A stretch of DNA of 32,000 nt from Telmatocola sphagniphila (GTDB taxonomy: Bacteria; Planctomycetota; Planctomycetia; Gemmatales; Gemmataceae), in NCBI RefSeq assembly GCF_018398935.1, contig NZ_CP074694.1, forward strand, positions 5,580,001 to 5,612,000, given 5' to 3'. Below the pieces are notes generated by a model. It was not told the origin of the DNA and ran no database searches. It saw only the letters and a list, made by a program, of their open reading frames with translations. This document shows positions 6,630 to 24,242 of this stretch, in pieces (within the stretch, counting starts at the first letter, position 1; each line of letters begins with the position of its first letter). The position numbers were made by a program, and so were the translations under genes.

Positions 6630-7601
6630 TTACGAAGGCACGGCCGTTTGATCCAGAATTTCCCGGAGAGCTTCCGCCGCCCCGTCATCGCGCTTGCCCT
6701 GGCTCCAGCGTTTGGAGATCAGACGATGCGCGAGCGCCGGGACGACGAGTTGCTTCACATCATCGGGGATCACATAATCCCGGCCATCGAGCAGGGCCGA
6801 GGCCTGCACCGCCCGGTAAAGGCCTAAAGCCGCGCGGGTACTGGCCCCGAGCGAAATATCCGGATGCACGCGCGTCTTGTCGATGATATCCAGAAGATAA
6901 TCCGACAGGCTATCCGAAAAGCGGACTTTTCGCACCCGCATTTGAATATCGAGCAGCTCATTGACTTCGATGACCGATTTCAGATGATCGACAGGTTCGC
7001 CATCGCGGTGCTGGGTCAGAATATCCCGTTCCACCGATCGCGGAGGGTAGCCGATCTCGCACCGGATGCTGAAACGGTCGAGTTGGCTTTCCGGAAGGGG
7101 GTAAGTGCCTTCAAATTCATAGGGGTTCTGAGTAGCAATCACGATAAATGGCGGCCCGAGCTGCCGGGTCTGGCCTTCGAGCGACACCTGCTTCTCGCTC
7201 ATGGCTTCGAGCAGAGCACTTTGCGTGCGCGGCGTGGCCCGGTTGATTTCATCGGCCAAAATCACCTGTGCGAAGATCGGTCCGGCTTGAAAAACGAATT
7301 CGCCGCTCGGCTTGTGGAAAATGCTGGTTCCCAGCAAGTCGCCCGGAAGTAAGTCGGGCGTGAATTGAATGCGGTGGAAACTGCAATTCAAGCTTTTGGA
7401 GAGGGCCTTGGCCAAAAGCGTTTTGCCCACGCCGGGCACGTCTTCCAGTAAAAGATGCCCTTCCGCCAATAAGGCGATCAATGCCAGTCGGGTGACTTCC
7501 TGCTTGCCCAGCAGAATGCCACCGATGTTATCCTGTAGCTGCTTGAGTTTAGCGACTAAAGGGGCTAAATCGGGGGAAGTGCCCGCGTGCGGGTCGGCCA
7601 T
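6630..7601 (-). CDS. MoxR-family AAA+ ATPase
   Basis: 323 aa. Walker A 'DVPGVGKT', Walker B 'ILADEINRA' and 'PRTQSALLEAMSEKQVS' followed by 'FIVIATQNP' are typical of the MoxR/AAA_3 family. Confidence 0.92.
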   Translation of the reverse strand: MADPHAGTSPDLAPLVAKLKQLQDNIGGILLGKQEVTRLALIALLAEGHLLLEDVPGVGKTLLAKALSKSLNCSFHRIQFTPDLLPGDLLGTSIFHKPSGEFVFQAGPIFAQVILADEINRATPRTQSALLEAMSEKQVSLEGQTRQLGPPFIVIATQNPYEFEGTYPLPESQLDRFSIRCEIGYPPRSVERDILTQHRDGEPVDHLKSVIEVNELLDIQMRVRKVRFSDSLSDYLLDIIDKTRVHPDISLGASTRAALGLYRAVQASALLDGRDYVIPDDVKQLVVPALAHRLISKRWSQGKRDDGAAEALREILDQTAVPS

Positions 7602-7676
7602 TCGGACCTCTTATCGGAAAGCCTCGGATCAATCGCCAGCTCTTAAGTGTGCTACGGCTCTGGCAACACAGTTATA

Positions 7677-7690
7677 TTAGTCGCGACTAA
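7677..7690. repeat. Perfect 14-bp palindrome TTAGTCGCGACTAA, 76-89 nt upstream of the MoxR start
   Basis: Read directly: TTAGTCG/CGACTAA with no spacer. It is immediately followed by a partial direct repeat (CGACTAA CGACTGA). On the minus strand it abuts an AT-rich TAATAT hexamer. Whether it has a function such as an operator is unknown. Confidence 0.5.
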
Positions 7691-7747
7691 CGACTGAATC
7701 TTGAGGTTTTACGGAAAGTCCTAAGGAGTTGTTCATTTTCTCAAAAA

Positions 7748-8629
7748 TCACCAGGGTGGTATCACCTGGCCATCGTTCCGCATGCCGAGCAGTTCGTATG
7801 TCGTCGGGTCGATGGTTTCCGGAATGGACTGTACGTGCCCATCGGCAAAAGCGAACATGACCACCTGCATGTGCATGCTACCGAACTTCCAGGCCGTATC
7901 CTGCGGATTGGTCGTCAGAGGAAAAGCCCGCGAAGCCGCCCGACAGGAGCATTGATAGTAGTCGCCATTATAAATTGAGCAGTCCCACCACCCGACACCC
8001 AGGTTGCCTTGGGGCACCTGCTTCTCGCCCATCAGGATCGTATTGCTGGTACCGTCGGTGAAGTCGGCGAAGCGCGTGCCGGACCCCATCTGGAAGGCCG
8101 CCGTCATGCTCGGCTGCGAAGTCGTGGGATAATCGTATCCGGAACGGTCGATGCTGGCGGCATAGTCCCCGAGTGCTCCGGGGACGTTTTGACTCCCCGA
8201 ACCCAGGGTGGCAGAGCTGGGAATATCGCCACTGATGCTCCACATCGGGGCCGAATTGGCCACGCGTCGGGAAGGGCAGAAATAGATTGGTACCGCACTT
8301 CGTTGCGCGGTCGTGTTCTGCTGATAGTAAGTCAGCCCGAGATTCCACTGTCGGTAGAGATTGTCCTGCTCGATATAGGGCAGGATCAACACGGCCCAGG
8401 TCGCATAGCCCTGTCCCAGACGGCTGGGCGGGAACGAATTCATGTTGAATTCGTAATTGTGCATGGCCAGGGCGATTTGCTTCAGGTTATTCGAACAGCG
8501 CATGCGACTGGCCGCTTCCCGAGCTTTCTGCACCGCGGGCAGAAGCATGCCGATGAGAGTCGAGATAATCGCGATCACCACGAGCAGTTCGATCAGCGTG
8601 AACGCCGATCTGGCAGTTTTCCGTTTCAT
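7748..8629 (-). CDS. DUF1559 domain protein with prepilin-type N-terminal cleavage/methylation motif (planctomycete pseudopilin-like family)
   Basis: 293 aa. N-terminus 'AFTLIELLVVIAIISTLIGMLLPAVQKAREAASRMRCSNNLKQIALAMHNYE' and C-terminal 'FAFADGHVQSI' are the family signature. Confidence 0.9.
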   Translation of the reverse strand: MKRKTARSAFTLIELLVVIAIISTLIGMLLPAVQKAREAASRMRCSNNLKQIALAMHNYEFNMNSFPPSRLGQGYATWAVLILPYIEQDNLYRQWNLGLTYYQQNTTAQRSAVPIYFCPSRRVANSAPMWSISGDIPSSATLGSGSQNVPGALGDYAASIDRSGYDYPTTSQPSMTAAFQMGSGTRFADFTDGTSNTILMGEKQVPQGNLGVGWWDCSIYNGDYYQCSCRAASRAFPLTTNPQDTAWKFGSMHMQVVMFAFADGHVQSIPETIDPTTYELLGMRNDGQVIPPW

Positions 8630-8637
8630 CAGTCACC

Positions 8638-9879
8638 TCATTTCCAAGGTAGAGAAGCTCTTGGAATTTGCAGTCGAACCGGATCCTTGCCGCCAAACGG
8701 GCTGCCAGGAAGTTCGAAATGTAAGTATTGGATTCCTTTTTCGGGAATCTCAAACAGAAAAAGTTGCTGGCTGCTTTTACCCGGGAACAGGGTGGCCGGG
8801 GCGGGCTGCCAGCCGGGAACTTCGGCACCGGTTTCCAGGGCTTTGAAAGCGATCATTCGCCCTTCGGAATCGGTCAACTTAGGGGCCACTTCCGGAGGTT
8901 TGGGATTGATTTCCCAGCCGCGAAAATCGATCTTCCGCGAGACGCCGAAGTTTTCCAGTTTCAGAGTGATCTGCAGAAATCGATCTTTAGTGACCCGGCG
9001 CTGATTCTGAGCATTCGTGAATTCCACCGGTCCTGCGGTTATGGACGCCAGCGAAATTCGCACGTCGTCCTGCTGCCAGGTCGATTTGGCTATATCGATC
9101 CAATCGGCGGTAATGCCCAACCCGGTGGAAGGGTCGACCGCGCGGACGATGGTGGGGTCTTCGACTTTTTCGAAGACCCACAACGGCTTCTGGCCCAGCC
9201 AGCCCGGGAACAGAAGCACCAGAAACAGGATTAATGCATTGAGTCCGGTGGCCGCGAATGGAATTCGCTTTTCCAGATAAACATTGATGATTGCCAAAAG
9301 GCCGAAGATCAGTCCGATGGCCGAGAGGCCTAGGGCGATCCAGCGACCGTACACTGTAACTTGCGTCGATAGTAAAGCCAGCCCGCCCAGCGACAAACCG
9401 ATCAGTCCGGGTATCAGCGAAAGGTTGGGATCCGATGGTGGGGCGAATGTCATCGGAACCGAAGGAGCGATTGCCGGCAGCGAGGGTATGGCAGGGATCG
9501 AAGGCGTCGTGGGAGCATTAACGGTGACGCTGGGAATGGTGTCCTGTGTGACGGGCTCGTGCATCGTCACAAGTCGTTCCCGGATATCGCTCGATCTTGT
9601 GCTTGGTGCGGGAACGGCGAGACTCGAGAGATTATTCACCGGGATATTGATTTCGAGTTCGCTTTTATCCTCGGCGTCCGCGCTCGAATCCGGCATCGAG
9701 AGCGTGAAGGACATGTTGCAGCTGGGGCAGGTGGCCGAGCGCCCGATCATTTTTCGCGGAGCGCGGACTTTCCCTTTGCCGCAGTACGTACAGACAGCTG
9801 TGAATGGCACGGTGGCCTTCTCCGGCGAAAATGAGAGTCTTATTAGTAAGTATCCATCGTCCGATTGAAACCGCCGCAA
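8638..9879 (-). CDS. Hypothetical membrane protein: N-terminal zinc ribbon, Pro-rich linker, 3-4 TM helices, C-terminal beta-rich exported domain
   Basis: 413-aa ORF. 'CTYCGKGKVRAPRKMIGRSATCPSC' is a CxxC...CxxC zinc ribbon. 'PTTPSIPAIPSLPAIAPSVP' is a proline-rich linker. Hydrophobic helices run from 'LIPGLIGLSLGGLALL' to 'ALILFLVLLFPGWL'. The C-terminal ~190 aa resemble a DUF4352-type Ig-like domain (weak call). The start is a TTG at 9879; a GTG at 9810 also precedes the zinc ribbon, so the start is uncertain. The stop is 8 nt upstream of the DUF1559 start. Confidence 0.6.
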   Translation of the reverse strand: MRRFQSDDGYLLIRLSFSPEKATVPFTAVCTYCGKGKVRAPRKMIGRSATCPSCNMSFTLSMPDSSADAEDKSELEINIPVNNLSSLAVPAPSTRSSDIRERLVTMHEPVTQDTIPSVTVNAPTTPSIPAIPSLPAIAPSVPMTFAPPSDPNLSLIPGLIGLSLGGLALLSTQVTVYGRWIALGLSAIGLIFGLLAIINVYLEKRIPFAATGLNALILFLVLLFPGWLGQKPLWVFEKVEDPTIVRAVDPSTGLGITADWIDIAKSTWQQDDVRISLASITAGPVEFTNAQNQRRVTKDRFLQITLKLENFGVSRKIDFRGWEINPKPPEVAPKLTDSEGRMIAFKALETGAEVPGWQPAPATLFPGKSSQQLFLFEIPEKGIQYLHFELPGSPFGGKDPVRLQIPRASLPWK

Positions 9880-9937
9880 TGCAAGTGAATTTCAGATATG
9901 CGAGTGAATAGAGCCGCGGCGGCCTAACGAGTCGTGT

Positions 9938-9972
9938 CAAAATATAAAACCCCGAAGAGATCTTCGGGGTTT
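9938..9972 (-). terminator. Rho-independent terminator of the BI-1/YccA gene
   Basis: An 11-bp stem (9947-9957 AAACCCCGAAG pairs with 9962-9972 CTTCGGGGTTT) with a 4-nt loop. Read on the minus strand, the stem is followed by TATATTTT. It starts 28 nt downstream of the stop at 10000. Confidence 0.75.
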
Positions 9973-9999
9973 GTCGAATTTTGAATTATTGTCGGAGAA

Positions 10000-10719
10000 T
10001 TAATCTCTGCTGGAATTCAGCAGAATCCGGAGGATGTAGTAGAAGAGCATCGTGACATCGGCGAACAGTTCCAAGGCCGCCCCCACGTGCTGGTTCACAC
10101 CATAGTGATGAAGCACGTTCGAGGTGTCGTACAGAATGTAACCGCAGACCAAGGCCACCATCAGGAAGCTGAACCAGATGCCCAGACCGAAGCCTCCGAT
10201 CGCCGCGGCAATGATGATTCCCAATCCGGCGAAGCCCAGCACCGTCAGACCCGTGCCGAGGAACGAGAAATCCTTCTTGGACAGAAATACCGCCGCGGAC
10301 AAACCGCCGAAGATGGTCAAGGTCATGATGCCGGCTTGCAAGGCCAACCGGTGATCGCCGGTTTTCGCTTCGGCAATCGTCAAAATCGGCATGAAGATGA
10401 CCGCCTGAAGGGCCACATACAGAGCCAGGCCCAAATACTGGGTCATCGTATTGCGGGAGGCCGCCATCACTCGAGCGATGAAGCCCGAGCCCATAAACAG
10501 AACCATCAGCGCGATCCAGGCGAAGGTTCCACCCCCCCGAAGGGCATTGAAAAACAAATCCCGGATGGGGGAATTCAAAAAGACCGCTTCCAAACCGACA
10601 AAAGCTACCGAGGCCGCGGCCACGGTAGCATAAGTCTTGCGAATGAATGCCAGACGCACATTAGATGGTGCCTGAGCCACCGAATCGGTGTAGTAACCAT
10701 CTTCCAAATACTGACTCAT
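10000..10719 (-). CDS. Bax inhibitor-1/YccA family inner-membrane protein
   Basis: 239 aa with seven predicted TM helices. The N-terminal 'RLAFIRKTYATVA' and the overall layout are typical of the BI-1/YbhL/YccA family. Confidence 0.85.
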   Translation of the reverse strand: MSQYLEDGYYTDSVAQAPSNVRLAFIRKTYATVAAASVAFVGLEAVFLNSPIRDLFFNALRGGGTFAWIALMVLFMGSGFIARVMAASRNTMTQYLGLALYVALQAVIFMPILTIAEAKTGDHRLALQAGIMTLTIFGGLSAAVFLSKKDFSFLGTGLTVLGFAGLGIIIAAAIGGFGLGIWFSFLMVALVCGYILYDTSNVLHHYGVNQHVGAALELFADVTMLFYYILRILLNSSRD

Positions 10720-10871
10720 ATTTTCTCCCCTTATTCACCCCGGACCAAGGGAACCGGGAACAGTTTTCAGATATCCTAACACGCCGTTTACCGGCCAACA
10801 AGCACAGACCATGCCAAAAAGAATGGTTTTCGAAATGATACCACTCGAAATACTTCCACGTTCGTCGCAAT

Positions 10872-11864
10872 TTACTTTTCGAAGATTTCCTCTTTCAGTC
10901 CCACATTCAGTTTCAGCTGGGTGTAGGAATACATCTCCAGGAGTTCCGGTTCGGTCTTGCCCTTCTTCGGTGCCTCGTAATTTTCGACGCGAACCGGTAA
11001 CTTCAAGGCTTTATCGAAGTATATGATCGACCTGTACGGGATATCCGGGTGTTTATCCTCGAGCGTTATTTCCAACTTCAAGCAATCTCGCTTGTCGAAT
11101 TGTACTTCGCTGAGGAGAATCTTAGATTTAACTCCGCCGGCTTTCTTATCCACATCGCCGATCTGTTCGATCAATTTACCGATCCCGGCCTGATCGATGG
11201 TATGCCGGTTATCCGACATAATCTTGGGATCGTCCACCGCCAGTGTCAGATAACCGACCAGTCCCTTCAATCCGGCCCCTTTCACGCGGGCTTTCCCCTC
11301 ATTTTTTCCTGCCATATAGGCAGCTTCCTGACCCTGCACCGATTTCGGACCCGTGAAGTGGAAGAATACGGCAAAAGGTTCCGCCCGGACGCTCATCTCG
11401 GCGGTCTGTTCATCCATCAGCTTGCTGCCGATACGTTCCTGCTTGATGAAAATGCAGGTGTAATCTTTGACCGATTTGTACGCCGAGCGAGACTGGTCGA
11501 TCCACTCCTTGATGATACCGGGCTTCGCCACCTCCGGTTCTCGCTTTTCTATATCGGGATCTTTCGATTTTTCCTTCGCTTTATCAGTATCCTTGCCCGC
11601 TTTGCGTTCCCGTTCTTCCCGTCGTTTCTGCAGCTTTTCCAGTTCGTCCTTGAGTTTGGCCTCCTTCTCGGCTTCCCGCTTGGCCTTTAACTCCTGTAGC
11701 CGTTTCATGATCGGGCCGACTTTCTTGTCGTCGTCGTCCTTATCCTTCTTCTTGTCGTCGTCTTTCTTTTTTTCGGTGGGATCCTGATCCGCAGCGGGCA
11801 GCGTCACGCAACCGACCGCCAGTACGGAACTGAGAGCAAAAAAAACCAGCCAACGTTGGAGCAT
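10872..11864 (-). CDS. DUF1571-like (LolA-fold) lipoprotein with a long Lys/Asp/Glu-rich low-complexity region
   Basis: 330 aa. Signal peptide with a lipobox-like 'LAVGC'. Residues ~30-110 are almost entirely K/D/E ('KKKDDDKKKDKDDDDKK...KREAEKEAKLKDELEKLQKRREERERK'). The C-terminal 200 aa ('YTCIFIKQERIGSKLMDEQTAEMSVRAEPFAVFFHF...GQEAAYMAGKNEGKARV') match my recollection of DUF1571. Confidence 0.65.
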   Translation of the reverse strand: MLQRWLVFFALSSVLAVGCVTLPAADQDPTEKKKDDDKKKDKDDDDKKVGPIMKRLQELKAKREAEKEAKLKDELEKLQKRREERERKAGKDTDKAKEKSKDPDIEKREPEVAKPGIIKEWIDQSRSAYKSVKDYTCIFIKQERIGSKLMDEQTAEMSVRAEPFAVFFHFTGPKSVQGQEAAYMAGKNEGKARVKGAGLKGLVGYLTLAVDDPKIMSDNRHTIDQAGIGKLIEQIGDVDKKAGGVKSKILLSEVQFDKRDCLKLEITLEDKHPDIPYRSIIYFDKALKLPVRVENYEAPKKGKTEPELLEMYSYTQLKLNVGLKEEIFEK

Positions 11865-11994
11865 GGTGGTCCCCCCGTCATGGATCGTCTGTCCAGGTGT
11901 CGCATCCGCTGAAGCGCATAGCCCCCGAGCCAGCTTGGATGCCGTACCCGGGATTGCACATAAACTACCCTAATTCTATCCGCAAGAGCATGTT

Positions 11995-12651
11995 ATGAGC
12001 TTGGTAATCAAAACTATTGTATCGATGCCGTTCGCTGAAAATACCTATCTTGTCTGGCTTGACAATTGGAAGCAGTGTGTGGTTGTTGACCCCGGATTGG
12101 ATCCTGAGAGTATTCAGGATTGTATCGCCGAGAATGAACTCTCCGTGGTCGCCATTCTGAATACACACGGCCATACCGATCATATTGCCGGCAATGACTT
12201 TATGAAAAAATTACTTCCCCAGGCGCCCATTATCATCGGGGAAGGGGATGCCCCGATGCTGACCGATCCGGATTTGAATCTCAGCCGATCCTATGGCATC
12301 GATATCGTCAGCCCCCCGGCGGATCAGACGGTCAAAGAAGGGGAAACCCTTCACCTGGGGGGTATGGATCTCGAAATACTGGATATTCCCGGACATTCGC
12401 CAGGCCATATCGTCTTTGTACTGAAAGAACACAAAATCGTGCTCGGCGGCGATGTGCTGTTTCGCGAAGGAATTGGCCGGACCGATTTCCCCGGCGGCAG
12501 TTTTCAAACGCTGGCGAAAGGAATTCGCGGCAAGCTTTTTACGCTCGATCCGGATTTTGTGGTCTACCCTGGCCATGGCCCGGTCACCAAAATCGGTCAC
12601 GAGAAGAAGGCCAACCCGTTCGTGGGAGAACAGGCCTCCCGCCAATGGTGA
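11995..12651 (+). CDS. MBL-fold metallo-hydrolase (glyoxalase II-like)
   Basis: 218 aa. Metal-binding 'NTHGHTDHIAGN', 'IPGHSPGH' and 'GDVLF..GIGRTDFPGG' are typical of the beta-lactamase-fold hydrolase family. Confidence 0.9.
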   Translation: MSLVIKTIVSMPFAENTYLVWLDNWKQCVVVDPGLDPESIQDCIAENELSVVAILNTHGHTDHIAGNDFMKKLLPQAPIIIGEGDAPMLTDPDLNLSRSYGIDIVSPPADQTVKEGETLHLGGMDLEILDIPGHSPGHIVFVLKEHKIVLGGDVLFREGIGRTDFPGGSFQTLAKGIRGKLFTLDPDFVVYPGHGPVTKIGHEKKANPFVGEQASRQW

Positions 12652-14047: not shown

Positions 14048-15490
14048 TCAACCCCCTTTTTTCAGAAGGGAAAGTGCTTGGCCAAATAAGCTGGGCAGTG
14101 GGCTGGGATCGTATTCCCGGGGACTGTTGTAGACTTCCGGGCCGCGCGGCAGCTTCAGAATCTTTTGAATTTGGTCGAGCAGGTTGAGAAGAGCCACTTT
14201 GTCTGCGTCGTTCAGCGATTGAGTCTCTTTTAACACAAGCAGGGCGTAGTAGATCTGGCAAGCAGTATCCCAATCGAGGGGCTGCGATTGGGTAAGACGC
14301 TGCAGGAGTGCGTCGACTGTCAAAGGCTTAACCGGCTGCTTCAGGAGGAATAGAGCCTGGGCGATTTCCCTTGTCAGCAAAGCGGTATCTCCTTGTTGCA
14401 GAGTCTTTTGAATACCTGGAAAATCGTGGCCAGGTACAAAAAGAGTATTCCAAACTAACCTTCCCGAACTCGATGGTCGCCAGCCGGCCACCTTGAGGTC
14501 GTGATGGCAGGAGAAGCAATTGAATTCCGCCAACTCCGGCCAGGGCTTCCTTTCCACTCGATCCGCAAGCAATCCTAACGCCGCTTTGGCACGTTCCGTT
14601 GCTCCGGCCGACCAGGCGACGGCTTCCCACCCAACGGGTAGAGGTCGGTTACCCTGCAGTCGATCTTTTTCCGACCAATGCCTTGGTAAAGCCCGCAAAT
14701 AAGTCGCGAATTCGAAGTTCAACCGAGGATGCCCGGCGGCAATAAAATCGTGATTCACGTCTCGTAAAGGCTGATCTTTACTGGCGGGCGCTCCGACATG
14801 GCAACCGGCACACTGGGCGGCTCGGACATTCCAGTCGTAAAGGCGAGTCAGTCCGAATTGGGAATACGCTTTTTCCCGATCGGTCTGGTCGGTCCAGCTC
14901 ACATGTTCCGAGCGGTAGGCATTAGCCGCCCCATGACAGGCCTCGCAGGAAACGCCCTCTCGTAATAAAGCGACCTGTTCGTCCGTAAAAGTCTTCGACT
15001 CCAGGGTTTTGACCAGGAGCGGATTGGCATGGCAGGCCAGGCAACGAAGATCCTGCTGGGCCGAGTGATTCTCATTCGGATACAGGCGTTTCATCATGGC
15101 CTGCGATTTGGCATTCAAAAGTGTTTCGTAGGATTGGGCGTGAGGATCCTTCAGCGTCCAAATGGTTTGGCTGCTTTTCCAGAGCGATTGAGGGCTTTCC
15201 TGGCTGTCGGCAGGAGATTGGCTATGGCAGTTGCTGCCGCTGCATCCCGCCGAACCGAAAAGAGTGGGAGCCCCATGAATTTTCGAAGAAATCGGTGTGG
15301 TTTCGCCCGCAGGAGAGGGAGTGCTGGAGATCGCGCGCAGACCCGAGGGGATCAGGAAATAGACCCCGATCAACAGGGAGGCTATCAGCAAGCCGCTGAC
15401 AGTCGGTCGCAAAAGCATGGAGCGTTCTCGGGTTCGGAGGAAGACCACACCAGTTAAGTCACTTCTTGCGCGATTGTCCAGCGCGAACAT
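14048..15490 (-). CDS. Exported multiheme c-type cytochrome, five heme-binding motifs (paralog A; c554-like N-terminal part)
   Basis: Five motifs in order: CSGSNCH (CX4CH), CLACH, CEACH, CAGCH, CFSCH. It is colinear with the ORFs at 22869 and 24239, sharing blocks such as 'DPHA.aY', 'GV.CE.CHG', 'C..CHVG...H...AAGHP.L.FE' and 'EF.C..CHH'. The signal/anchor helix 'LLIASLLIGVYFLIP' begins after Met25, so the true start may be the ATG at 15418 rather than 15490. Confidence 0.85.
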   Translation of the reverse strand: MFALDNRARSDLTGVVFLRTRERSMLLRPTVSGLLIASLLIGVYFLIPSGLRAISSTPSPAGETTPISSKIHGAPTLFGSAGCSGSNCHSQSPADSQESPQSLWKSSQTIWTLKDPHAQSYETLLNAKSQAMMKRLYPNENHSAQQDLRCLACHANPLLVKTLESKTFTDEQVALLREGVSCEACHGAANAYRSEHVSWTDQTDREKAYSQFGLTRLYDWNVRAAQCAGCHVGAPASKDQPLRDVNHDFIAAGHPRLNFEFATYLRALPRHWSEKDRLQGNRPLPVGWEAVAWSAGATERAKAALGLLADRVERKPWPELAEFNCFSCHHDLKVAGWRPSSSGRLVWNTLFVPGHDFPGIQKTLQQGDTALLTREIAQALFLLKQPVKPLTVDALLQRLTQSQPLDWDTACQIYYALLVLKETQSLNDADKVALLNLLDQIQKILKLPRGPEVYNSPREYDPSPLPSLFGQALSLLKKGG

Positions 15491-15550: not shown

Positions 15551-16450
15551 TTGAAGCGGTCAAAGAATCCGACCGCCTTTCGGAGGACGGTGTTGCAATT
15601 TGGTTCTTCAGCTTCGGTGACTAGCCGAGTCGCTTCCCTGTTGGGTTGGGTCGTACTGGCCTGCGTTCCCATTGTTGGCTGGTACGCAGCGATTTTCTGG
15701 GGCTGGGTGAGCTGGCCGCGAGCGAGTGAACCGCTTCCTTTGGTACTTGGGGTTCTGGCGGCCGGGATTATTGGTTTTGAAATGGCTCTGGCGATTCGCA
15801 AAAGAGCGCGGGGCAAAAAGAATCGAATTACCGGCAAACATCTCAAGGCCACCAAATGGTGGACGCGCTGGCACGTCTATCTGGGAATTCTCGCTTTGCC
15901 CCTCGGAGTGCTGCATAGCGCCTTCCACTTCGGTGGGCCGCTGACAACGGTGCTCTTACTCTTGTTCGTAATTGTAATTCTCAGTGGAGTCTGGGGGCTG
16001 ATCCTGCAACAATGGCTGCCTTCCAAGTTGCTGATTGATTTTCCGAATGAGACGATCATCAGCGAAGTACCAGGGGTGATGAAATCGTACGAACCGGAAA
16101 TTGAAGGACTGATTCGTATTACTGCCGATGGAAGTTCGGAATTGAAGAGTATCCTGGAAACTCAACTGAAACCCTACCTGATGGAAGGGAAAAAGCATGC
16201 AATATTCAGCGATCCGGAGACTTGCCGTAAAGGATTTTCCCAATGGCGCGAACGCTATCCCTCCAGCAATCCGGCAGTGCTGCCGGCACTGGCCCGCCTG
16301 GAGACGATGTGCCAATGGCGCAGGGAATGGCGACGACAGGGTCGGGTCTATTTCTGGTTGCATAGTTGGTTACTCATCCATCTGCCGCTGTCTTTGGCCT
16401 TGTCCGTTTTGCTGATACTGCATGTGTTTGTGGCTTTGAAAATCTGGTGA
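15551..16450 (+). CDS. Unassigned 5-TM membrane protein with two Hx13H pairs (candidate di-heme b transmembrane electron carrier)
   Basis: 299 aa. Predicted helices at about aa 27-53, 62-82, 103-127, 131-156 and 266-297. His108/His122 sit in helix 3 (codons at 15872-15874 and 15914-15916). His277/His291 sit in helix 5 (16379-16381 and 16421-16423). A ~110-aa Arg/Lys-rich loop lies between helices 4 and 5. The start is a TTG and is uncertain. The stop is 7 nt before the next gene. Confidence 0.7.
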   Translation: MKRSKNPTAFRRTVLQFGSSASVTSRVASLLGWVVLACVPIVGWYAAIFWGWVSWPRASEPLPLVLGVLAAGIIGFEMALAIRKRARGKKNRITGKHLKATKWWTRWHVYLGILALPLGVLHSAFHFGGPLTTVLLLLFVIVILSGVWGLILQQWLPSKLLIDFPNETIISEVPGVMKSYEPEIEGLIRITADGSSELKSILETQLKPYLMEGKKHAIFSDPETCRKGFSQWRERYPSSNPAVLPALARLETMCQWRREWRRQGRVYFWLHSWLLIHLPLSLALSVLLILHVFVALKIW

Positions 16451-16457
16451 AGCGCGA

Positions 16458-18080
16458 ATGCCGATGAAGTACTCCCCCGGCCGGGAACGGTCGGATCGAT
16501 ACTCGAAAATCCGCGACTACTTCCAACAGCCCAACGGGGTGCAGTGGTGGAAGCGGACCTTGTGTGTAGTTGCGCTGCTGACGACCGTCTTCTGGATCGC
16601 CTGGGGGTTTGTAAAAGCCCGCGAAAGCAACAAACCCATTCTGGACGATTTTCGCTTCAGTCATGGGCCGCTAGCGAGTCCTCACACGACTCTTAACAGC
16701 GAATGCGGTGCCTGCCATAAAAAATTCGATTCCGTTGCGGAGTTCACCTCGCTCAGTGCCATCGATATTCACAAGCGCTGGCACAGCTTCGACTGTTCCA
16801 GTTGCCATGCAGGGCCCGCCGAGCAGAAAACTTATTACGCACCGCATCTCGAATCGTTTGTCGGAAAGAACAATTCCGGCGAGCAATGTTCTGACTGTCA
16901 TCGCGACCATTCCGGAGCGGACGCGTCGCTGGTTAAGATTCCCGACGGCAACTGTCTAAACTGTCACCGCGATCTCGGATCGATGGCCGAGTTCGTGAAG
17001 CACTCGACGCCGAATATTGCGAAACTGGCCGAGCATCCCAATTTTCGAATCCTTAAAGAACGCAATAGCCACACTGCGAACAATTACGATCGCGGTCTGA
17101 AGTTCAGCCATGCACAGCATCTGACGCCCGGTATGCCGATCTCCGCCACTCAGACCGGTCTTTTCACACTCGAAAAATTGAAGCCCAGCGATCGCGAGCG
17201 GTATGCCACGGCCGATCAGCTTAAACTCTTGCAATCTGCAGATTCCAAAGTTCTGCAACAGGCCGTGCAATTGCAATGTGTTTCCTGCCACACCAGCGAA
17301 CCGGCTCCCGGCCAGTTAAAAACCGATGGGGCGTACATGCAGCCGGTGAAGTTCGAGGAGCGCTGCCAGGCGTGCCACGCGCTCAATACCGGACCCATTC
17401 AAAGCCGCGATTTTCCCACGCTCAAGCTTCCGGCAATTCAGTTGCCGCATCGCTTGCAACGAAACGATCTGGCGTCTTACCTGCGGGCGAAAATCGCGGA
17501 TGTCATTTTGCACGATTCCACGTCGAATCCGAAACCGCCGATTAATGATCGGCTCGATCCCCGGCAGAAAGAGGTCGTGCAAACTTTTGAAGAACAGGTG
17601 CGAAAAATCCAAACTACCCTGGAGCGGATGATTTTTGACAGCGGCGAACACTGCGCCAAATGCCACACCTTCCAGCCGGCCAACAGTGAACCCCGGGCGA
17701 TCGCTCCGGTAAATATTCCTGCAGTCTGGCTGCCCCAGGGCCGGTTCAACCACGCTTCGCACAAAACGATGAATTGTGTCCTGTGTCACGAGAACAAGCA
17801 GCCGCTGTTCGTCGATGGAAAAGTGGATGTGACCGAACGCGGGCCAGTAGGTATCGCCGACTTCGATAGTTGCCGGGTCTGTCATTCACCGAAACATTTC
17901 GATGAACAGCGAAAGCAAGAAGTGGGCGGCGTCCGGCACGACTGCGTTTACTGCCATCGCTACCATAACGGCGAACGCGGACTATCGGCGACCGAAACAG
18001 ACCGGTGGAATAGGCTGATCCCAGAGACTTCAAAATCATCCGCGATTCTTCAAGGTCGGAGCGAAACACCGAAACCATGA
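16458..18080 (+). CDS. Membrane-anchored multiheme c-type cytochrome, ten CxxCH motifs (class III / c3-c7-like)
   Basis: 540 aa. An N-terminal ~34-aa tail is followed by the TM anchor 'TLCVVALLTTVFWIAWGFV'. Motifs: CGACH, CSSCH, CSDCH, CLNCH, CVSCH, CQACH, CAKCH, CVLCH, CRVCH, CVYCH. 'F.H..H' distal-ligand-type blocks are present (KFSHAQH, RFNHASH). Confidence 0.9.
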   Translation: MPMKYSPGRERSDRYSKIRDYFQQPNGVQWWKRTLCVVALLTTVFWIAWGFVKARESNKPILDDFRFSHGPLASPHTTLNSECGACHKKFDSVAEFTSLSAIDIHKRWHSFDCSSCHAGPAEQKTYYAPHLESFVGKNNSGEQCSDCHRDHSGADASLVKIPDGNCLNCHRDLGSMAEFVKHSTPNIAKLAEHPNFRILKERNSHTANNYDRGLKFSHAQHLTPGMPISATQTGLFTLEKLKPSDRERYATADQLKLLQSADSKVLQQAVQLQCVSCHTSEPAPGQLKTDGAYMQPVKFEERCQACHALNTGPIQSRDFPTLKLPAIQLPHRLQRNDLASYLRAKIADVILHDSTSNPKPPINDRLDPRQKEVVQTFEEQVRKIQTTLERMIFDSGEHCAKCHTFQPANSEPRAIAPVNIPAVWLPQGRFNHASHKTMNCVLCHENKQPLFVDGKVDVTERGPVGIADFDSCRVCHSPKHFDEQRKQEVGGVRHDCVYCHRYHNGERGLSATETDRWNRLIPETSKSSAILQGRSETPKP

Positions 18081-19969
18081 AGATTTCTATCCTACCTCGA
18101 CTGCATGAGATTCAGCATCACCACGGCTATCTGCCGGAGCAAGAGCTGCTTCATTTGGCCGGTGAACTGAATGTTCCATTGTATCGCATTCAGGAACTCA
18201 TCAGCTTCTTCCCGCATTTCCGGCCCGAATGGCAGAAACCGCCCCAGGTGGAAGTGCAGATCTGCCGGGATATGAGTTGCCATTTGAAGGGCAGTTCCGA
18301 CTGGATTCATTCGAAAGAAAAAGGACTGGCCGGGCTGGCCAAAGCCGGGGAAGTGGAGATCAAAGGGGTCTCCTGTCTGGGTCGGTGTGATCGGGCGGTG
18401 GCCTGTGTAGTTACCCGGCACGATCTTTCGCCTACTATCCACGAAGAGTTATTCGCCGGGCTGAGCCTTCCGGAATTTCGCGAAAAACTCACTCAGGTCA
18501 TTCAGGGTAAGAATCCCGCACCCACTCCCGATGGCCCTTCGAAACCGGGCGAGCCGTTCCGAGTCGATTCATCAGCCTGGATGATCGATCTCTATGCACA
18601 AGGCAACCTTCCGCCTTACACGGTCGCGCGTAAATTCGTCGAAGAGTTTCGGAAGCCAATAGCTCCACCCCAAGCGGGATTATCTTCCAAAGAGACCACG
18701 GCTTATATCGAGAAAGTGCACCCCTGGCTCAAGGTTCTCGAAAAATCGGGTCTGATGGGAATGGGCGGCGCGGGTGTACCGGCCGCCAAAAAATGGACCG
18801 ATGTCTGGCTGGAATCGCGGGCGGAAAAGTACATCGTGGCCAACGGCGATGAAAGCGAACCGGCTACCTTCAAGGATCGGGAATTGATTCTGCAGAAAGC
18901 CCATCTGCTGGTCGAAGGGATGCTGCTGGCCGGGCTAATGACCAATGCCACGGCCGGGATTATTTTCATTCGGCACGAATATCCGGAGCAGATTCAGGCG
19001 GCCCGATCGGCGATTGAACAGGCCCGTCAGGTCGGGATTTGCGGTAAGTCGATTCTGGGAACCGAACGGGATTACGATCTGGAAGTTTTCGTCAGCCCCG
19101 GCGGCTATATCTGCGGCGAGCAATCGGCGCTCATTGAGGCCATTGAAAACAAACGAGCTCAGCCTCGAAATCGACCGCCGGAACTGGGCACCAACGGCCT
19201 GTGGAACTGTCCCACCGTCGTCAACAATATCGAAACACTTTCCTGGACGCCGGCCATTCTGCACAATGGGGCGGACTGGTACATCAATCAAAATCGAGCC
19301 CCGTACAAAGGACGGCGATTTTTCTCGATCAGCGGCGATGTGCATAAACCCGGAGTATTCGAAGTCCCCATCGGCCTGACGCTGGGCGAATTGATCGATC
19401 TGGCGGGGGGTGTCCAAGGCGGCGAACTTGGGGCCGTGGCTACTTCGGGTCCTTCGGGGGGATTTCTTCCTGCGAGCTTCCGGATCGCCCCGAACGAAGC
19501 TCAGCCGAACCCCGAGCCGGTGAGCCTTCGGAGTTTGCCGCTCGATCTGACAGTCTTTCGCAATAAAGGCCGCGAATTGAAAATCGGTTACGATTTGATG
19601 CTGGGGGCCGGACTGGTCGTCTATAACAATACCCGCGATATGCTGCAGGCCGCCCGCAATGCCGCGCAGTTTTTCCGCAACGAATCCTGTGGCAAATGCG
19701 TTCCCTGTCGGATCGGTTCGCAAAAGATGGTCGAACTGGGCACCGGCCTTCTGGCTGAGCGGGAGGACCGCAAGCCCCAGGATATGCCCGATGAAGATTG
19801 CACCGCCCCGGCGACTAGCCCGGGCGATATTGCCCGGACCGTTAAAGACATGAAGCGCGCTTTGGAGCTGACCTCGATCTGCGGATTGGGAACCTCGGTC
19901 AGTAATCCGATCGCCTCTTATTTGCAATTTTTCGCTCCCAAGCCCGAGGGCGAAAGAAAATCGCGCTGA
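18077..19969 (+). CDS. Fused NuoE-like [2Fe-2S] / NuoF-like FMN-NAD(P)H-[4Fe-4S] flavoprotein (HoxEF/diaphorase-type)
   Basis: 630 aa. NuoE pattern Cx4C...Cx3C ('CRDMSC', 'CLGRC'). NuoF blocks 'GMGGAGVPAAKKW' (FMN), 'ANGDESEPATFKDRELI' (NADH), 'GGYICGEQSALIEAIENKRAQPR' and 'ESCGKCVPCRIG...ICGLG' ([4Fe-4S]). No signal peptide. The start overlaps the upstream stop (ATGA at 18077-18080). Confidence 0.92.
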   Translation: MKISILPRLHEIQHHHGYLPEQELLHLAGELNVPLYRIQELISFFPHFRPEWQKPPQVEVQICRDMSCHLKGSSDWIHSKEKGLAGLAKAGEVEIKGVSCLGRCDRAVACVVTRHDLSPTIHEELFAGLSLPEFREKLTQVIQGKNPAPTPDGPSKPGEPFRVDSSAWMIDLYAQGNLPPYTVARKFVEEFRKPIAPPQAGLSSKETTAYIEKVHPWLKVLEKSGLMGMGGAGVPAAKKWTDVWLESRAEKYIVANGDESEPATFKDRELILQKAHLLVEGMLLAGLMTNATAGIIFIRHEYPEQIQAARSAIEQARQVGICGKSILGTERDYDLEVFVSPGGYICGEQSALIEAIENKRAQPRNRPPELGTNGLWNCPTVVNNIETLSWTPAILHNGADWYINQNRAPYKGRRFFSISGDVHKPGVFEVPIGLTLGELIDLAGGVQGGELGAVATSGPSGGFLPASFRIAPNEAQPNPEPVSLRSLPLDLTVFRNKGRELKIGYDLMLGAGLVVYNNTRDMLQAARNAAQFFRNESCGKCVPCRIGSQKMVELGTGLLAEREDRKPQDMPDEDCTAPATSPGDIARTVKDMKRALELTSICGLGTSVSNPIASYLQFFAPKPEGERKSR

Positions 19970-20003: not shown

Positions 20004-22706
20004 ATGGAAGAAGAATATTATCTCGGTGGCAGTCTTCGCGATGAGGAGTCGCTGTTTTCGCGCGGCGAAGATGGCCGGCTGATTCGCCGGGAGGAGGCAC
20101 GCCGGGATCAGTTCGAAAAAGAATGTTCCATTTTCATCGACGGCCACGAAGTCAAAATCACCGAGGCCGTGCCGGTTACGGATCGCTTGGGCAATATCCT
20201 CTACGACGGTGAAGGAGAACCGATCCCCCGTCTAACCACGATTTACGATGCCGCGCAAAAACTGGTGAAAGATGGGATCTGGGCCAAAGAGGAACTTCAA
20301 AAGCGCATCCCGTTGCTGTGCCATCAATCGCACCTGACACCCATCGCGGTTTGCCGCATGTGCTCCGTTCACATCTGCAAAATTTCGACCGATAATCAAG
20401 GCGTACCCAAAAAGGATGCCGAAGGCAAAGAGGTCAAAAAGTCGGAACGCAAACTCTACGCGGCCTGCCATCACCCGGCCATTCCCAACCAAAATACGAT
20501 CATGCGGGTGACGACCCGCGTGGGTCCCGAACAGCCCAACGACGAGGAAAAACGGGCTTCCGAAAGCGTCCGAAATTCGACCAGTCTACTCGCGGAACTT
20601 TTGGCCGCCGATCATCTACCGGCCAGTAGCGCTAATGAGGATCGCTTCTACAACGAATTGCGCGAGGTGCACAAAAACACCCGGCCGGAACCCGTTCCAG
20701 AAGGGGCGACTGTTCCGAGACCGCGCTTCCTCAGTAATCCCGGGATCGAGCAGTCGAAAAATCTCGGACGCAATGCTGTCCTGCACCCCAAATCTCGTCC
20801 CTTGAAATCGGATCACGGCGAACTGCCGTATGCCTCTAAAGCCCTGAGTCTGATTCAAGTCGATCACGACCGCTGTATCCTTTGCGACCGCTGCGTGCGT
20901 TCCTGTACCGATGTTCGAGAATTCAAGATCATCGGTCATACCGGGAAAGGGTATCGAACCCGCATCAGTTTCGATCTCGATGAGGTCATGAACGAATCGG
21001 GTTGCGTGCAATGCGGCGAGTGCATGACTTCCTGCCCGACGGGAGCGCTGATGCTCAATCGCCGGGCTGCCCCCGACTGGAAAGAGCCGGGACTGGGAAA
21101 AATTGATATCGACCCGGCCAAGCCGTTACCTCCCGCAACTCCTCAAGGTCGCTTTCCCAGTGCCCAGGAGATGCGAACGCTCTCCGTACCCTATGTGGAG
21201 AAGCAATTAACCGGAAGCGAAGCCGAGAAACTCCGTTATTTCCAGCCATTTAAAGGCATCCCTTTCGCCTATCTGCGTTGGAACGAAGGGGCGGTGGTCG
21301 AACGGGAATTCGATCGCGAAACCACTCTCTGCGTGCAAAACGAATATGGCTCCACGGCTTTCATCCTGCTCGCGGGCGAGTTTGAGGTGAAAATTGCCCT
21401 TCCGAATGGCGAGAAGAAGTTCCCCGTGAAAGCGGGCGAATCGCTGATTCTGGGCGAATTGGCCTGTCTTTCCAATCGGCCTCGCGCCGCCTCCATCGTG
21501 GCCAAAGTCCAGAATGGTGTACGGCCGCGTGTTCTCGAAGTACGCCGGAATATGCTGTCGATGCTGTTGCGCAATCAATCCGACCGGCAGGTACTGGCTA
21601 AAGTCTACCGACAGCATGCCATCAGCGATACCTTGCGGAACAATTCCCTTTTCCGGGAACTTTCCGAAGCAGATCGCCGGGAGGCCGAAAGTCTGTTTTT
21701 GAATTCCAAGGCCGTGTTGATGCGGCGACAACCGGGGGAATGTCTGGTCGCGCAGGGAGCCCCGGCCAGCTATCTCTATCTGATCCGGTTTGGTTTTGTC
21801 AAAGTCACCAAGCGCGATTTCGAGCGCGAAGAAACCATAGCCGTTCTGCGCGAAAACGATTACTTCGGCGAAATCGCTCTGATTTCCGAGCATCCGCTAC
21901 TGCGGGACGAAATTAAAAAATATGGCATCGAAGTCGATCGGCGTACGGCGTCCTGCTTCGCTCTGGACGATGTCGAAGTCCTGCGCGTTCCCCGGGATGC
22001 CTTTGAAAGCTATTGCAAAATCAACCAGAACTTTGCCGAACGGCTGGCGAAGAAATCGCTCGAGCGGGTTCGACCGACACCGGCCCGCGATCGCAAAGCG
22101 ATAGAACTGCTGGACAGTTACGTCGATCAGGGTCTCTATCAGGCCCAGAACATCCTCGTGCTCGATCTGGAGCGCTGTACTCGCTGCGATGAATGTACGA
22201 AGGCCTGCTCCGATGCCCACGGTCCGGGTGCCAATGGTCTGAGCCATAGCCGTTTGCTTCGCGAAGGAGCTCGCTTCGGGAACTTCCTGGTGGCGACCGC
22301 CTGCCGATCCTGTCACATGCCGTACTGCATGAATGACTGCCCGGTGGATGCCATTCATCGTGGTAAGGAAAGTCTCGAAATTCGAATCGAAAATCATTGC
22401 ATCGGTTGCGGCTTATGCGAACGCAACTGCCCTTACGGTTCGATTCAAATGGTTCCCAATCCGGATGTGAAAGCGAAAGCTCTTCCGGGAGCTACCGGCC
22501 TCATTGCCCAGCCGTCTCGCAAGGCCTTGAACTGCGATCTCTGCCAGGGCTTGATCGATCGCGGAGAAGATACCTTCTGTGTACACGCCTGCCCGCACGA
22601 AGCGGCCTTCCGCTTCACCGATTCCCGGGCGACACAGTCGGGTGGCCGGGAAGAACGAGCCGGGGAGAAGCTAATGCGTCTGGTCACAGAAAAAACGCGG
22701 CGATAG
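20004..22706 (+). CDS. Fe-S fusion protein: HoxU/NuoG-N-terminal-like module + two cNMP-binding-like domains + DmsB/HybA-type four-cluster ferredoxin
   Basis: 900 aa with no signal or Tat motif. [2Fe-2S] pattern C106-x10-C117-x2-C120...C155. Two ferredoxin motifs, 'CILCDRCVRSC' and 'CVQCGECMTSCPTGAL'. cNMP-like domains at about aa 413-520 ('GELACLSNRPRAASIVA') and 548-665 ('YFGEIAL...RRTASCFAL'). C-terminal motifs 'CTRCDECTKAC', 'CRSCHMPYCMNDCP', 'CIGCGLCERNCP' and 'CDLCQGL...FCVHACP'. Confidence 0.9.
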   Translation: MEEEYYLGGSLRDEESLFSRGEDGRLIRREEARRDQFEKECSIFIDGHEVKITEAVPVTDRLGNILYDGEGEPIPRLTTIYDAAQKLVKDGIWAKEELQKRIPLLCHQSHLTPIAVCRMCSVHICKISTDNQGVPKKDAEGKEVKKSERKLYAACHHPAIPNQNTIMRVTTRVGPEQPNDEEKRASESVRNSTSLLAELLAADHLPASSANEDRFYNELREVHKNTRPEPVPEGATVPRPRFLSNPGIEQSKNLGRNAVLHPKSRPLKSDHGELPYASKALSLIQVDHDRCILCDRCVRSCTDVREFKIIGHTGKGYRTRISFDLDEVMNESGCVQCGECMTSCPTGALMLNRRAAPDWKEPGLGKIDIDPAKPLPPATPQGRFPSAQEMRTLSVPYVEKQLTGSEAEKLRYFQPFKGIPFAYLRWNEGAVVEREFDRETTLCVQNEYGSTAFILLAGEFEVKIALPNGEKKFPVKAGESLILGELACLSNRPRAASIVAKVQNGVRPRVLEVRRNMLSMLLRNQSDRQVLAKVYRQHAISDTLRNNSLFRELSEADRREAESLFLNSKAVLMRRQPGECLVAQGAPASYLYLIRFGFVKVTKRDFEREETIAVLRENDYFGEIALISEHPLLRDEIKKYGIEVDRRTASCFALDDVEVLRVPRDAFESYCKINQNFAERLAKKSLERVRPTPARDRKAIELLDSYVDQGLYQAQNILVLDLERCTRCDECTKACSDAHGPGANGLSHSRLLREGARFGNFLVATACRSCHMPYCMNDCPVDAIHRGKESLEIRIENHCIGCGLCERNCPYGSIQMVPNPDVKAKALPGATGLIAQPSRKALNCDLCQGLIDRGEDTFCVHACPHEAAFRFTDSRATQSGGREERAGEKLMRLVTEKTRR

Positions 22707-22868: not shown

Positions 22869-24242
22869 TTGGTACGCAAGCTGTCGAGTCTGGGCATTCC
22901 CTTGCTTCTACTGGTTTTGGGAGCTGTGCTGAGCTTTCGTTCCGATGAGGTCGATGGTGGCGAACCACCGTCCGCCTCCTCAGCCAACTCCCACTTCTCG
23001 ATTTTGGGATCCTCCTCCTGTGCCAGTTCCGGTTGTCACGGCGGCGGTAAGCCTCGAAACCTGGGGAGTGAATGGAATACCTGGATCGATAGCGACCCTC
23101 ACGCGAAGGCCTATCGCATTCTGTTCAATGAAACCTCGGTACGCATGGCTCGCAATCTCAACTTGCGGGATTCCCAGAACCGAATTGTTCCCGCTCATGA
23201 AAATATGACCTGTCTGAAATGTCATTCGCCCCAGGCGACCGAGTCCTCGGCTCATGCGGACGGCGTCGGCTGCGAAAGTTGCCACGGCCCCGCCGGGAAA
23301 TATGGCACCGTGCACTATCTCGACTTCTGGAAAAATCTGACCGTCGAGGAAAAGGCCAAACAGTACGGTCTACTCGCGACCAAGAATATCGATTTCCGCA
23401 TTCAGCAGTGTGCGACCTGCCACGTCGGCAACGCCGAGCAGGATGTCGATCATAATCTGATTGCCGCCGGGCATCCGAGACTGCTATTTGAATATAGCAG
23501 CTTCCAGCATTCACCGAACTACACCCCGCACTGGAAAGAAAAAACCAGCAATTTCGAAATCCGATCTTGGATACTCGGCCAGATCGCAATTGCAAAAGCG
23601 ACTCTTGAACTCACTGAGGCGAGGGCACTCAAGAAAACGAATTGGCCGGAGTTCGGCGAGTTCAACTGCCAATCCTGCCATCACAAGATAGATGATGCAA
23701 ATTTTGCTTCTATTTCCAAATCGACGGGAATGTCGCCCTGGAATGACTGGGCATTCGCTATGCTCCCGGTGATCGGTACAGCTTTGAGTACCAAATCGGA
23801 ACAATTGCCGGAATTGAAATCGCTCGAACAATTGCGGAAGACGATGAATGAAAAACCGACCGATACCCAGACGATTCTGGCACTTACCCCACAGGCACTT
23901 CAGGAATTGGAGTGTTGGTCCCGAATCCTGACAGCCGCCAACTCGGTTCGCCTTGAGAATCTACCCGCTCTCAAATCTGCAATCGCAGCGGACATTTTGA
24001 ATGCCGATTCACGGACTTTGCGCTCACCCGATTGGGAGAGCCGGATGCAACACTTCCTGGCTCTGGCTCAGTTGCAATACGCTTCAGGGCAAAAGCTCAG
24101 TCCCGAGTTGAACGCAGTATTCGAGAAAATTCGTAACCAGTTGAAGTATCAGACGGGAACCAACGCTCCCCGTTCCGTGCCCGTCGAAGAGCAGACACAA
24201 GCCTGGAACGCGCTCCAAAATACCCTGACCCCGAAACCATGA
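22869..24242 (+). CDS. Exported multiheme c-type cytochrome, five heme-binding motifs (paralog B)
   Basis: 457 aa. Signal peptide 'LGIPLLLLVLGAVLSF'. Motifs: CASSGCH (CX4CH, 23019-23039), CLKCH, CESCH, CATCH, CQSCH. A heme-free helical C-terminal ~190 aa follows. The TTG start is uncertain. Confidence 0.85.
   Translation: MVRKLSSLGIPLLLLVLGAVLSFRSDEVDGGEPPSASSANSHFSILGSSSCASSGCHGGGKPRNLGSEWNTWIDSDPHAKAYRILFNETSVRMARNLNLRDSQNRIVPAHENMTCLKCHSPQATESSAHADGVGCESCHGPAGKYGTVHYLDFWKNLTVEEKAKQYGLLATKNIDFRIQQCATCHVGNAEQDVDHNLIAAGHPRLLFEYSSFQHSPNYTPHWKEKTSNFEIRSWILGQIAIAKATLELTEARALKKTNWPEFGEFNCQSCHHKIDDANFASISKSTGMSPWNDWAFAMLPVIGTALSTKSEQLPELKSLEQLRKTMNEKPTDTQTILALTPQALQELECWSRILTAANSVRLENLPALKSAIAADILNADSRTLRSPDWESRMQHFLALAQLQYASGQKLSPELNAVFEKIRNQLKYQTGTNAPRSVPVEEQTQAWNALQNTLTPKP

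Follow-up and report, generated by a model that had tools for sequence, protein, structure and literature searches.

We analysed a 32,000-nucleotide stretch of Telmatocola sphagniphila DNA (contig NZ_CP074694.1, positions 5,580,001 to 5,612,000; hereafter the window) and found in it a cluster of redox genes around an open reading frame (ORF) predicted to encode a di-haem cytochrome b with five transmembrane (TM) helices (Table 1). The gene directly downstream, which starts 7 nt past the stop codon of the cytochrome b ORF, encodes a decahaem cytochrome c with an N-terminal membrane anchor. Its own stop codon overlaps the start of a NuoE-NuoF fusion gene (ATGA; hereafter NuoEF), and this is followed by the gene for a 900-residue soluble Fe-S protein and by genes for c554-like cytochromes c. 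An earlier reading of this DNA, made without database searches (the sequence-only reading), had proposed that the membrane protein carries two haems b and that its large cytoplasmic loop could dock an Fe-S protein encoded downstream. NuoEF and a polyferredoxin-containing protein are indeed encoded by the second and third genes downstream, but the adjacent gene is that of the decahaem cytochrome c. Docking of the cytoplasmic loop to the Fe-S protein is plausible from synteny.

The 900-residue Fe-S protein has Nqo3/HoxU-like clusters in its N-terminal region, two cyclic nucleotide monophosphate (cNMP)-binding domains of PKA/PKG-like type (residues about 438-633), and a polyferredoxin C-terminus resembling ArrB, HycB and DmsB. 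This composition suggests an Fe-S wire that senses cyclic AMP or cyclic GMP (cAMP/cGMP). We found no TM segment in NuoEF or in the Fe-S protein, and no other catalytic partner or acceptor encoded in the cluster. A scan of the cluster for promoters and terminators gave results close to the shuffled expectation (terminator-like sites within about 1.5 standard deviations) and was not used.

Table 1. Features of the predicted cytochrome b gene and the redox genes around it, in window coordinates; residue numbers are those of the listed 299-residue translation, and topology is predicted. AF2, AlphaFold2.
Feature	Coordinates	Strand	Basis or remark
Predicted 5-TM di-haem cytochrome b ORF	15551..16450	+	TTG start, 299 aa as listed
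TM helices 1 and 2 (residues ~27-53, ~60-82)	15629..15796	+	Hydropathy; AF2 23-49, 61-86
Lys/Arg-rich cytoplasmic loop between helices 2 and 3 (residues 83-103)	15797..15859	+	Family mean net charge +5.9
TM helix 3 with His108 and His122; Gly112 near-invariant	15860..15922	+	Hydropathy, conservation
TM helix 4 with near-invariant Ser145, Gly146, Gly149 and Gln153; ends at Pro157	15941..16018	+	Conservation
Cytoplasmic helical insert (residues 157-265) with conserved Glu167-Thr168 and Arg257-Arg258	16019..16345	+	AF2, conservation
TM helix 5 with His271 (16361-16363), His277 and His291; Trp273 invariant	16346..16441	+	Hydropathy, conservation
Decahaem cytochrome c, 540 aa, 10 CxxCH, N-terminal membrane anchor	16458..18080	+	Motif count
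NuoE-NuoF fusion: 2Fe-2S thioredoxin-like, FMN/NAD(P)H-binding 51K and 4Fe-4S domains	18077..19969	+	Domain search
900-aa soluble cytoplasmic Fe-S protein	20004..22706	+	Domain search
c554-like pentahaem cytochrome c, N-terminal anchor, divergent from cytochrome b	14048..15490	-	Domain search
c554-like pentahaem cytochrome c, signal peptide-like N-terminus	22869..24242	+	Domain search
c554-like pentahaem cytochrome c, signal peptide-like N-terminus	24239..25831	+	Domain search

A membrane protein with two paired-histidine helices

The sequence-only reading had given the cytochrome b product 299 residues, which is correct for the ORF as listed, but the true start is probably further in. Because homologues begin at residue 15 in the alignment of relatives, and because the TTG at 15593 is preceded by GGAGGA with its end 5 nt upstream, we consider that the gene probably runs from 15593 to 16450 and encodes 285 residues, with TTG 15551 not used; the first 14 residues, which are rich in lysine and arginine, may be untranslated.

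Histidines occur at residues 97, 108, 122, 126, 216, 271, 277 and 291 of the listed translation. Among these, His108 and His122 lie within 'WHVYLGILALPLGVLH' on helix 3 (codons CAC 15872-15874 and CAT 15914-15916), and His277 and His291 lie within 'IHLPLSLALSVLLILH' on helix 5 (codons CAT 16379-16381 and CAT 16421-16423). Each pair is spaced i/i+14, that is with exactly 13 intervening residues, and the translation thus bears out both the helices and the gaps that the sequence-only reading had assigned to these four residues. Two parallel helices with this spacing form the classic bis-haem arrangement known from the cytochrome b of bc1 and from NOX. As a control for chance we used 4,983 other six-frame ORFs of at least 80 residues from 84 related loci; a single hydrophobic H-x13-H occurred in six of them and two in none (0/4,983), against two in 80 of the 84 homologues of the cytochrome b. 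The double pattern exceeds chance.

A word-indexed search identified 32 relatives, all annotated as hypothetical proteins and none with a precomputed Pfam domain, and in the alignment with these relatives His108, His122, His271, His277 and His291 are invariant. An exhaustive profile search covering 1.84 billion cluster representatives (50% identity clusters) extended the family to 4,307 proteins at E <= 1e-3, with 666 at E <= 1e-30. We examined conservation in an alignment of 180 divergent sequences (representatives clustered at 50% identity), where the four paired histidines, whose invariance the sequence-only reading had named as a check on its prediction, proved essentially invariant: His108 in 179/180, His122 in 180/180, His277 in 178/178 and His291 in 177/177. 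His271 is kept in 168 of 178 sequences, and His126 and His216 are not conserved. Near-invariant residues also include Gly112, Ser145, Gly146, Gly149, Gln153, Pro157, Glu167, Arg257, Arg258 and Trp273; glycines are expected at a helix face where a haem packs. Counted over genome loci, the paired histidines are present in 81/83 (H108), 84/84 (H122), 85/85 (H277) and 85/85 (H291). No fusion to a CxxCH-containing region was found in 179 retrieved relatives, the longer of which have longer inserts.

Kyte-Doolittle windows gave five hydrophobic segments, at about residues 27-53, 60-82, 104-124, 131-156 and 266-297. These agree with the helices of an AlphaFold2 model built on 33 sequences (23-49, 61-86, 96-123, 130-163 and 243-298), which has a mean predicted local distance difference test score (pLDDT) of 87 and a predicted template modelling score (pTM) of 0.76. 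The model confidently places a helical insert at residues 170-235, with pLDDT of 80-97 over the 157-265 stretch, and across the family this insert varies from 101 to 318 residues (median 149). The mean net charge in the family is +5.9 for the loop between helices 2 and 3 and +1.6 for the N-terminus, and the loops between helices 1 and 2 and between helices 3 and 4 are short and near neutral family-wide. These charges support a family-wide topology with the N-terminus inside, the C-terminus outside and the long insert in the cytoplasm, in keeping with the positive-inside argument of the sequence-only reading, even though the first 14 residues may not be translated. With this topology helices 3 and 5 would both run from inside to outside, and being parallel they would bring His108 and His277 to the cytoplasmic face and His122 and His291 to the periplasmic face. 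Incompatible depths of the paired histidines would have spoken against the earlier prediction; the depths are predicted to be compatible because the 14-residue spacing (about 21 A) puts both pairs in the same register on co-oriented helices. The cytoplasmic insert is a candidate docking or electron-entry region.

Matches to known families were sub-threshold throughout. The sole Pfam match of the window protein was to DUF4405 (PF14358; E-value 2.6e-4, 21.9 bits against a gathering cut-off of 26.7), and it aligns residues 65-127, spanning helices 2-3 with His108 and His122, to positions 7-66 of the 66-position profile. When we scanned 33 aligned relatives and listed matches at E <= 1, DUF4405 was matched by 29 (best E-value 6.4e-5), Ferric_reduct (PF01794) by nine (best 0.017), Ni_hydr_CYTB (PF01292) by six (best 0.0013) and PepSY_TM by three, and every other family appeared just once. 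For the window protein itself, PF01794 gave no match at E <= 1. Ferric reductases typically have bis-histidine pairs with 12-13 intervening residues on the co-oriented helices 3 and 5, and this placement is found here, with 13. PF01292 likewise gave no match to the window protein, whose paired histidines follow a 2+2 pattern (helices 3 and 5) and not the 1+2+1 pattern (helices 1, 2 and 4) of that four-helix family. Cytochromes of the NarI/DsrM/TmcC type bear unequally spaced histidines on helices 2 and 5; their family (PF02665, Nitrate_red_gam) matched neither the window protein, in which the spacing is 14/14, nor any of the 33 relatives. The sub-threshold signal, weak as it is, points consistently at two-haem cytochrome b families and suggests a remote kinship with them. 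The family is, as far as profile matches go, no formal member of any named family. The sequence-only reading was therefore correct in finding the protein not assignable by eye, since only sub-threshold Pfam matches were found and the NCBIfam search came back empty; the DUF4405, Ferric_reduct and Ni_hydr_CYTB models it had suggested for checking did give matches among the relatives, all to two-haem cytochrome b families, but weak ones only. Its bis-haem b prediction gains in silico support from conservation, topology and these family matches.

Neighbouring genes across genomes

The 84 loci that we fetched come mostly from Planctomycetota (Gemmataceae, Isosphaeraceae and Pirellulales), with a few from Acidobacteriota, and they include cultured Gemmata and Tundrisphaera. 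Gemmata algarum JC673, Gemmata sp. IIL30 and Tundrisphaera lichenicola P12 are examples of cultured carriers. Enough sequence was available at 79 loci, and at 77 of them a decahaem gene lies directly downstream of the cytochrome b gene; the two exceptions are ORF-calling artefacts. Exactly ten CxxCH motifs are present in 74/77 of these decahaem homologues and an N-terminal hydrophobic anchor in 73/77. When we restricted the comparison to the 42 well-flanked loci (7 kb or more on either side), NuoEF was present in 34 (35 with L002, where NuoEF runs off the end), the Fe-S protein in 37 and the c554-like genes in 34. Four Acidobacteriota loci (L064, L072, L074 and L076; ~5700..12200) have the order NuoEF, Fe-S protein, cytochrome b, decahaem cytochrome c, as against cytochrome b, decahaem cytochrome c, NuoEF, Fe-S protein, and in these the Fe-S gene and the cytochrome b ORF share a reading frame, the stop codon of the former immediately adjoining the latter. 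The four genes have thus remained neighbours despite the change of order.

Three of the loci (L024, L032 and L071) are from lake metagenome-assembled genomes (MAGs) titled 'Candidatus Kuenenia stuttgartiensis', 'Candidatus Kuenenia sp.' and 'Akkermansia muciniphila'. Their cluster is the same as in neighbouring unclassified Planctomycetaceae MAGs, and the species labels look unreliable. At a Tundrisphaera lichenicola locus (L042, 8023..9819) an adenylate/guanylate cyclase gene lies just upstream of the cytochrome b and decahaem pair; NuoEF and the Fe-S gene are missing from the vicinity.

The three c554-like cytochromes of the window are paralogues of about 460-530 residues, each with a haem-free C-terminal half of ~200 residues, and they match cytochrome c554 (1bvb) weakly. 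In two of the three the first haem motif is CX4CH (CSGSNCH, CASSGCH) and not CxxCH. Most Gemmataceae loci retain all three genes, though there they flank the cluster on its other side. Directly after the cytochrome cluster, at 26521..28128 (-), the window encodes an FHA-GAF-HD signalling protein (HD_5, HD-GYP-like). Typical Planctomycete content unrelated to the cluster includes a methenyl-tetrahydromethanopterin cyclohydrolase (2001..2954, -) and a MoxR AAA / DUF58 / transglutaminase-like operon (3010..7601, -), and the Planctomycete hallmarks DUF1559 and DUF1571 also occur.

Proposed electron path and competing explanations

Starting from what is established here, namely the motif, its conservation, the topology, weak clan-level homology and synteny, we propose that the protein is a di-haem b wire that joins NAD(P)H oxidation in the cytoplasm to haem c chains in the periplasm independently of quinones, and we put the probability of this at roughly 0.55. 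Two haems b with bis-histidine ligation would be held by His108 and His277 near the cytoplasmic face and by His122 and His291 near the periplasmic face, and the small near-invariant residues Gly112, Gly146 and Gly149 would make room for them. The cytochrome b would be the only membrane-spanning redox protein of the module and the transmembrane link of one complex, a role that we infer because it combines a bis-haem motif with a near-obligate decahaem partner and a usually co-encoded soluble NAD(P)H-flavin/Fe-S chain. Electrons would pass from NAD(P)H to flavin mononucleotide (FMN), through the Fe-S chain and its terminal polyferredoxin to the inner haem b (His108/His277), probably entering by way of the cytoplasmic insert and the cluster formed by Gln153, Glu167, Arg257-258 and His271. 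From there they would cross to the outer haem b (His122/His291) and continue through contacts with the decahaem cytochrome c and the c554-like cytochromes to a periplasmic or extracellular acceptor. Such a wire would be NOX-like in its logic. Redox potentials and membrane potential both favour outward flow, and NarGHI and FdnGHI provide precedents for a polyferredoxin that docks on a di-haem cytochrome b. MsrQ-like (ferric-reductase-type) cytochromes that cluster with NuoF-like genes have also been interpreted as wires fed by NAD(P)H (bioRxiv 10.1101/2021.01.07.425746).

Several observations weigh against this proposal. The invariant polar residues clustered at the cytoplasmic face might just as well form a quinone site, and haem b binding is a prediction from sequence, model and synteny. 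The DUF4405 match lies below the Pfam cut-off, no second Pfam family was found for the window protein at E <= 1, and the NCBIfam search returned no family for it. Hydropathy and the AlphaFold2 model both give five TM helices, as against the six of ferric-reductase and DUF4405 proteins. Profile searches with the full or the insert-deleted alignment found no related PDB chain, only noise, and Foldseek against the PDB returned nothing at E <= 0.001, so that a kinship in fold to NOX, MsrQ or FoxB is only putative. Finally, in five of the 42 well-flanked loci (L042, L043, L045, L051 and L053) the cytochrome b and decahaem genes form a pair alone among unrelated neighbours; because these loci have no nearby NuoEF or Fe-S gene, the pair can evidently stand alone. 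The cytochromes b of these pairs keep every conserved residue, and we saw no difference in the insert or in the conserved cytoplasmic residues between loci with and without the NuoEF and Fe-S genes.

The top Foldseek matches (TTYH, ABC transporters and sensor four-helix bundles) are generic helical proteins, and we drew no conclusion from them. An hhalign comparison with ten MsrQ sequences gave a probability of 0.1%, which is uninformative and not negative because the MsrQ alignment was too shallow (the set is at least 84% identical to E. coli MsrQ, with a template effective number of sequences (Neff) of 1.4). We also considered whether the anchor of the decahaem cytochrome could supply a sixth helix, and rejected this because the anchor crosses the membrane in the inside-to-outside direction, the reverse of helix 6 in ferric-reductase domains with the NOX topology.

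The strongest competing explanation, which we nevertheless regard as unlikely, is a quinone-coupled b/c module in which a menaquinone/menaquinol site, perhaps formed by Gln153, Glu167, Arg257-258 and His271, lets the quinone pool and the decahaem cytochrome c exchange electrons, with NuoEF and the Fe-S protein linked only indirectly or serving a separate role. Its models would be the FdnI/NarI-type subunits, the Geobacter Cbc complexes and the anammox 'electron transfer module'. The stand-alone pairs just described fit this explanation, as do the invariant polar cluster adjoining the inner haem and the weak matches of six of the 33 relatives to Ni_hydr_CYTB, a quinone-reactive family; moreover, for a b/c module of the same phylum, kuste2856/2855, a role in connecting hydrazine synthase with the quinone pool has been put forward (PMC8862662). 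However, the best weak matches are to DUF4405 and not to quinone-reactive families, and NuoEF and the Fe-S protein are kept beside the b/c pair in two phyla, through changes of gene order, when the cluster offers them neither a membrane or quinone-reducing subunit nor any other acceptor.

We think it quite improbable that electrons flow inward, from the periplasmic c554-like and decahaem cytochromes, fed by some oxidation in the periplasm, through the haems b and the Fe-S chain to NAD(P)+. The weak resemblance of the c554-like proteins to c554 fits such a direction, as c554-type cytochromes collect electrons downstream of hydroxylamine oxidation in nitrifiers, and the NuoEF module is reversible in principle. 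Against it, the conserved cluster encodes no periplasmic dehydrogenase, inward electrons would move against the membrane potential, and the step from typical haem c potentials to NAD+ (-320 mV) is uphill. Least credible of all is that the histidines bind a metal ion or have a structural or transport role in an anchor or assembly factor for the decahaem cytochrome: the family matches are all sub-threshold, but two invariant i/i+14 histidine pairs with an invariant glycine, the absence of the double pattern from the control ORFs, weak matches that point to haem b families and neighbours that are all redox proteins speak against it.

Returning to the quinone-independent wire, a more specific version can be put forward tentatively, and we would sooner doubt it than rely on it. 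The seven-gene module may be a transmembrane NAD(P)H:cytochrome c oxidoreductase of an undescribed, quinone-independent kind: a 'split bacterial NOX' whose Fe-S wire is gated by cAMP/cGMP through the two cNMP-binding domains. Its parts would be NuoEF, the polyferredoxin, the new family of di-haem cytochromes b and the decahaem cytochrome c, and in Planctomycetes and Acidobacteria it would carry reducing power straight out of the cytoplasm to acceptors in the periplasm or outside the cell. To our knowledge, Planctomycetes such as Gemmataceae and Isosphaeraceae have no reputation for exporting electrons to the periplasm or beyond the cell, and little of their respiratory chains has been mapped. 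The pairings of this family suggest that electrons from cytoplasmic NAD(P)H may reach the periplasm directly, without passing through quinones. If this is right, the cytochrome b would be a new membrane component among bacterial transmembrane electron conduits, thousands of 'hypothetical proteins' would acquire a testable function, and the module would be a rare redox wire bearing cyclic-nucleotide sensor domains. If quinone coupling should turn out to be the true explanation, the module would still be a new type of quinol:cytochrome c module.

Comparison with known systems

Among single proteins the closest comparisons are with DUF4405 and with NOX, STEAP and MsrQ. The DUF4405 domain has been described as two TM helices with two haem-ligand histidines, related to cytochrome b561 (PMC5898192), and a purified DUF4405 protein binds haem b and was modelled with six TM helices and four central histidines, like MsrQ and PepSY; DUF4405 proteins were proposed as transmembrane electron carriers (PMC11334425). 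The four invariant histidines of the present family parallel these four central ones. Unlike DUF4405 proteins, its members have five helices and a cytoplasmic helical insert of 100-300 residues before the last helix, and their partners are multihaem cytochromes c and NuoEF/Fe-S proteins, in place of ApbE-flavinylated proteins or ferrosome components. With NOX, STEAP and MsrQ the family shares histidine pairs on helices 3 and 5 with 13 residues between them and, as proposed here, entry of electrons from a cytoplasmic NAD(P)H-flavin system. It differs from them in its five helices, in having no fused FAD/NAD domain and in its probable use of a decahaem cytochrome c as the extracytoplasmic acceptor.

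Among complexes, NarGHI and FdnGHI offer the nearest parallel to the cytoplasmic side, as in both a DmsB-type polyferredoxin exchanges electrons with a two-haem cytochrome b, and the C-terminus of the Fe-S protein here is of DmsB/HycB type. NarI and FdnI have a different placement and spacing of histidines and react with quinones, whereas the other end of the wire proposed here would be a cytochrome c chain and not a quinone site. The Tmc, Hmc and DsrMKJOP complexes of sulfate reducers are conduits that join periplasmic multihaem cytochromes c, a membrane di-haem cytochrome b and cytoplasmic Fe-S proteins. In contrast to the present module, these have NarI-type cytochromes b, which show no sequence relationship to the window protein, and CCG-domain (HdrD-like) Fe-S proteins, with no link to NuoEF. 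The anammox kuste2856/kuste2855 module (PMC8862662), from the same phylum, and the Geobacter Cbc-type complexes (bioRxiv 10.1101/2021.04.15.440034) resemble the pair in arrangement, as each joins a membrane b-type cytochrome to a multihaem cytochrome c; both differ in being proposed as quinol-linked.

A transmembrane di-haem b that links cytoplasmic and periplasmic redox proteins is already known from NOX/MsrQ, DUF4405, Tmc/Hmc/Dsr and Nar/Fdn, and in the open-access literature we found no description of a module combining NuoEF, a cNMP-binding polyferredoxin, a cytochrome b and a decahaem cytochrome. What is new here is a large family that lies below every curated model, with five helices and a cytoplasmic helical insert, and the fixed way in which it is paired with a decahaem cytochrome c and with a module of NuoEF and cNMP-binding polyferredoxin.

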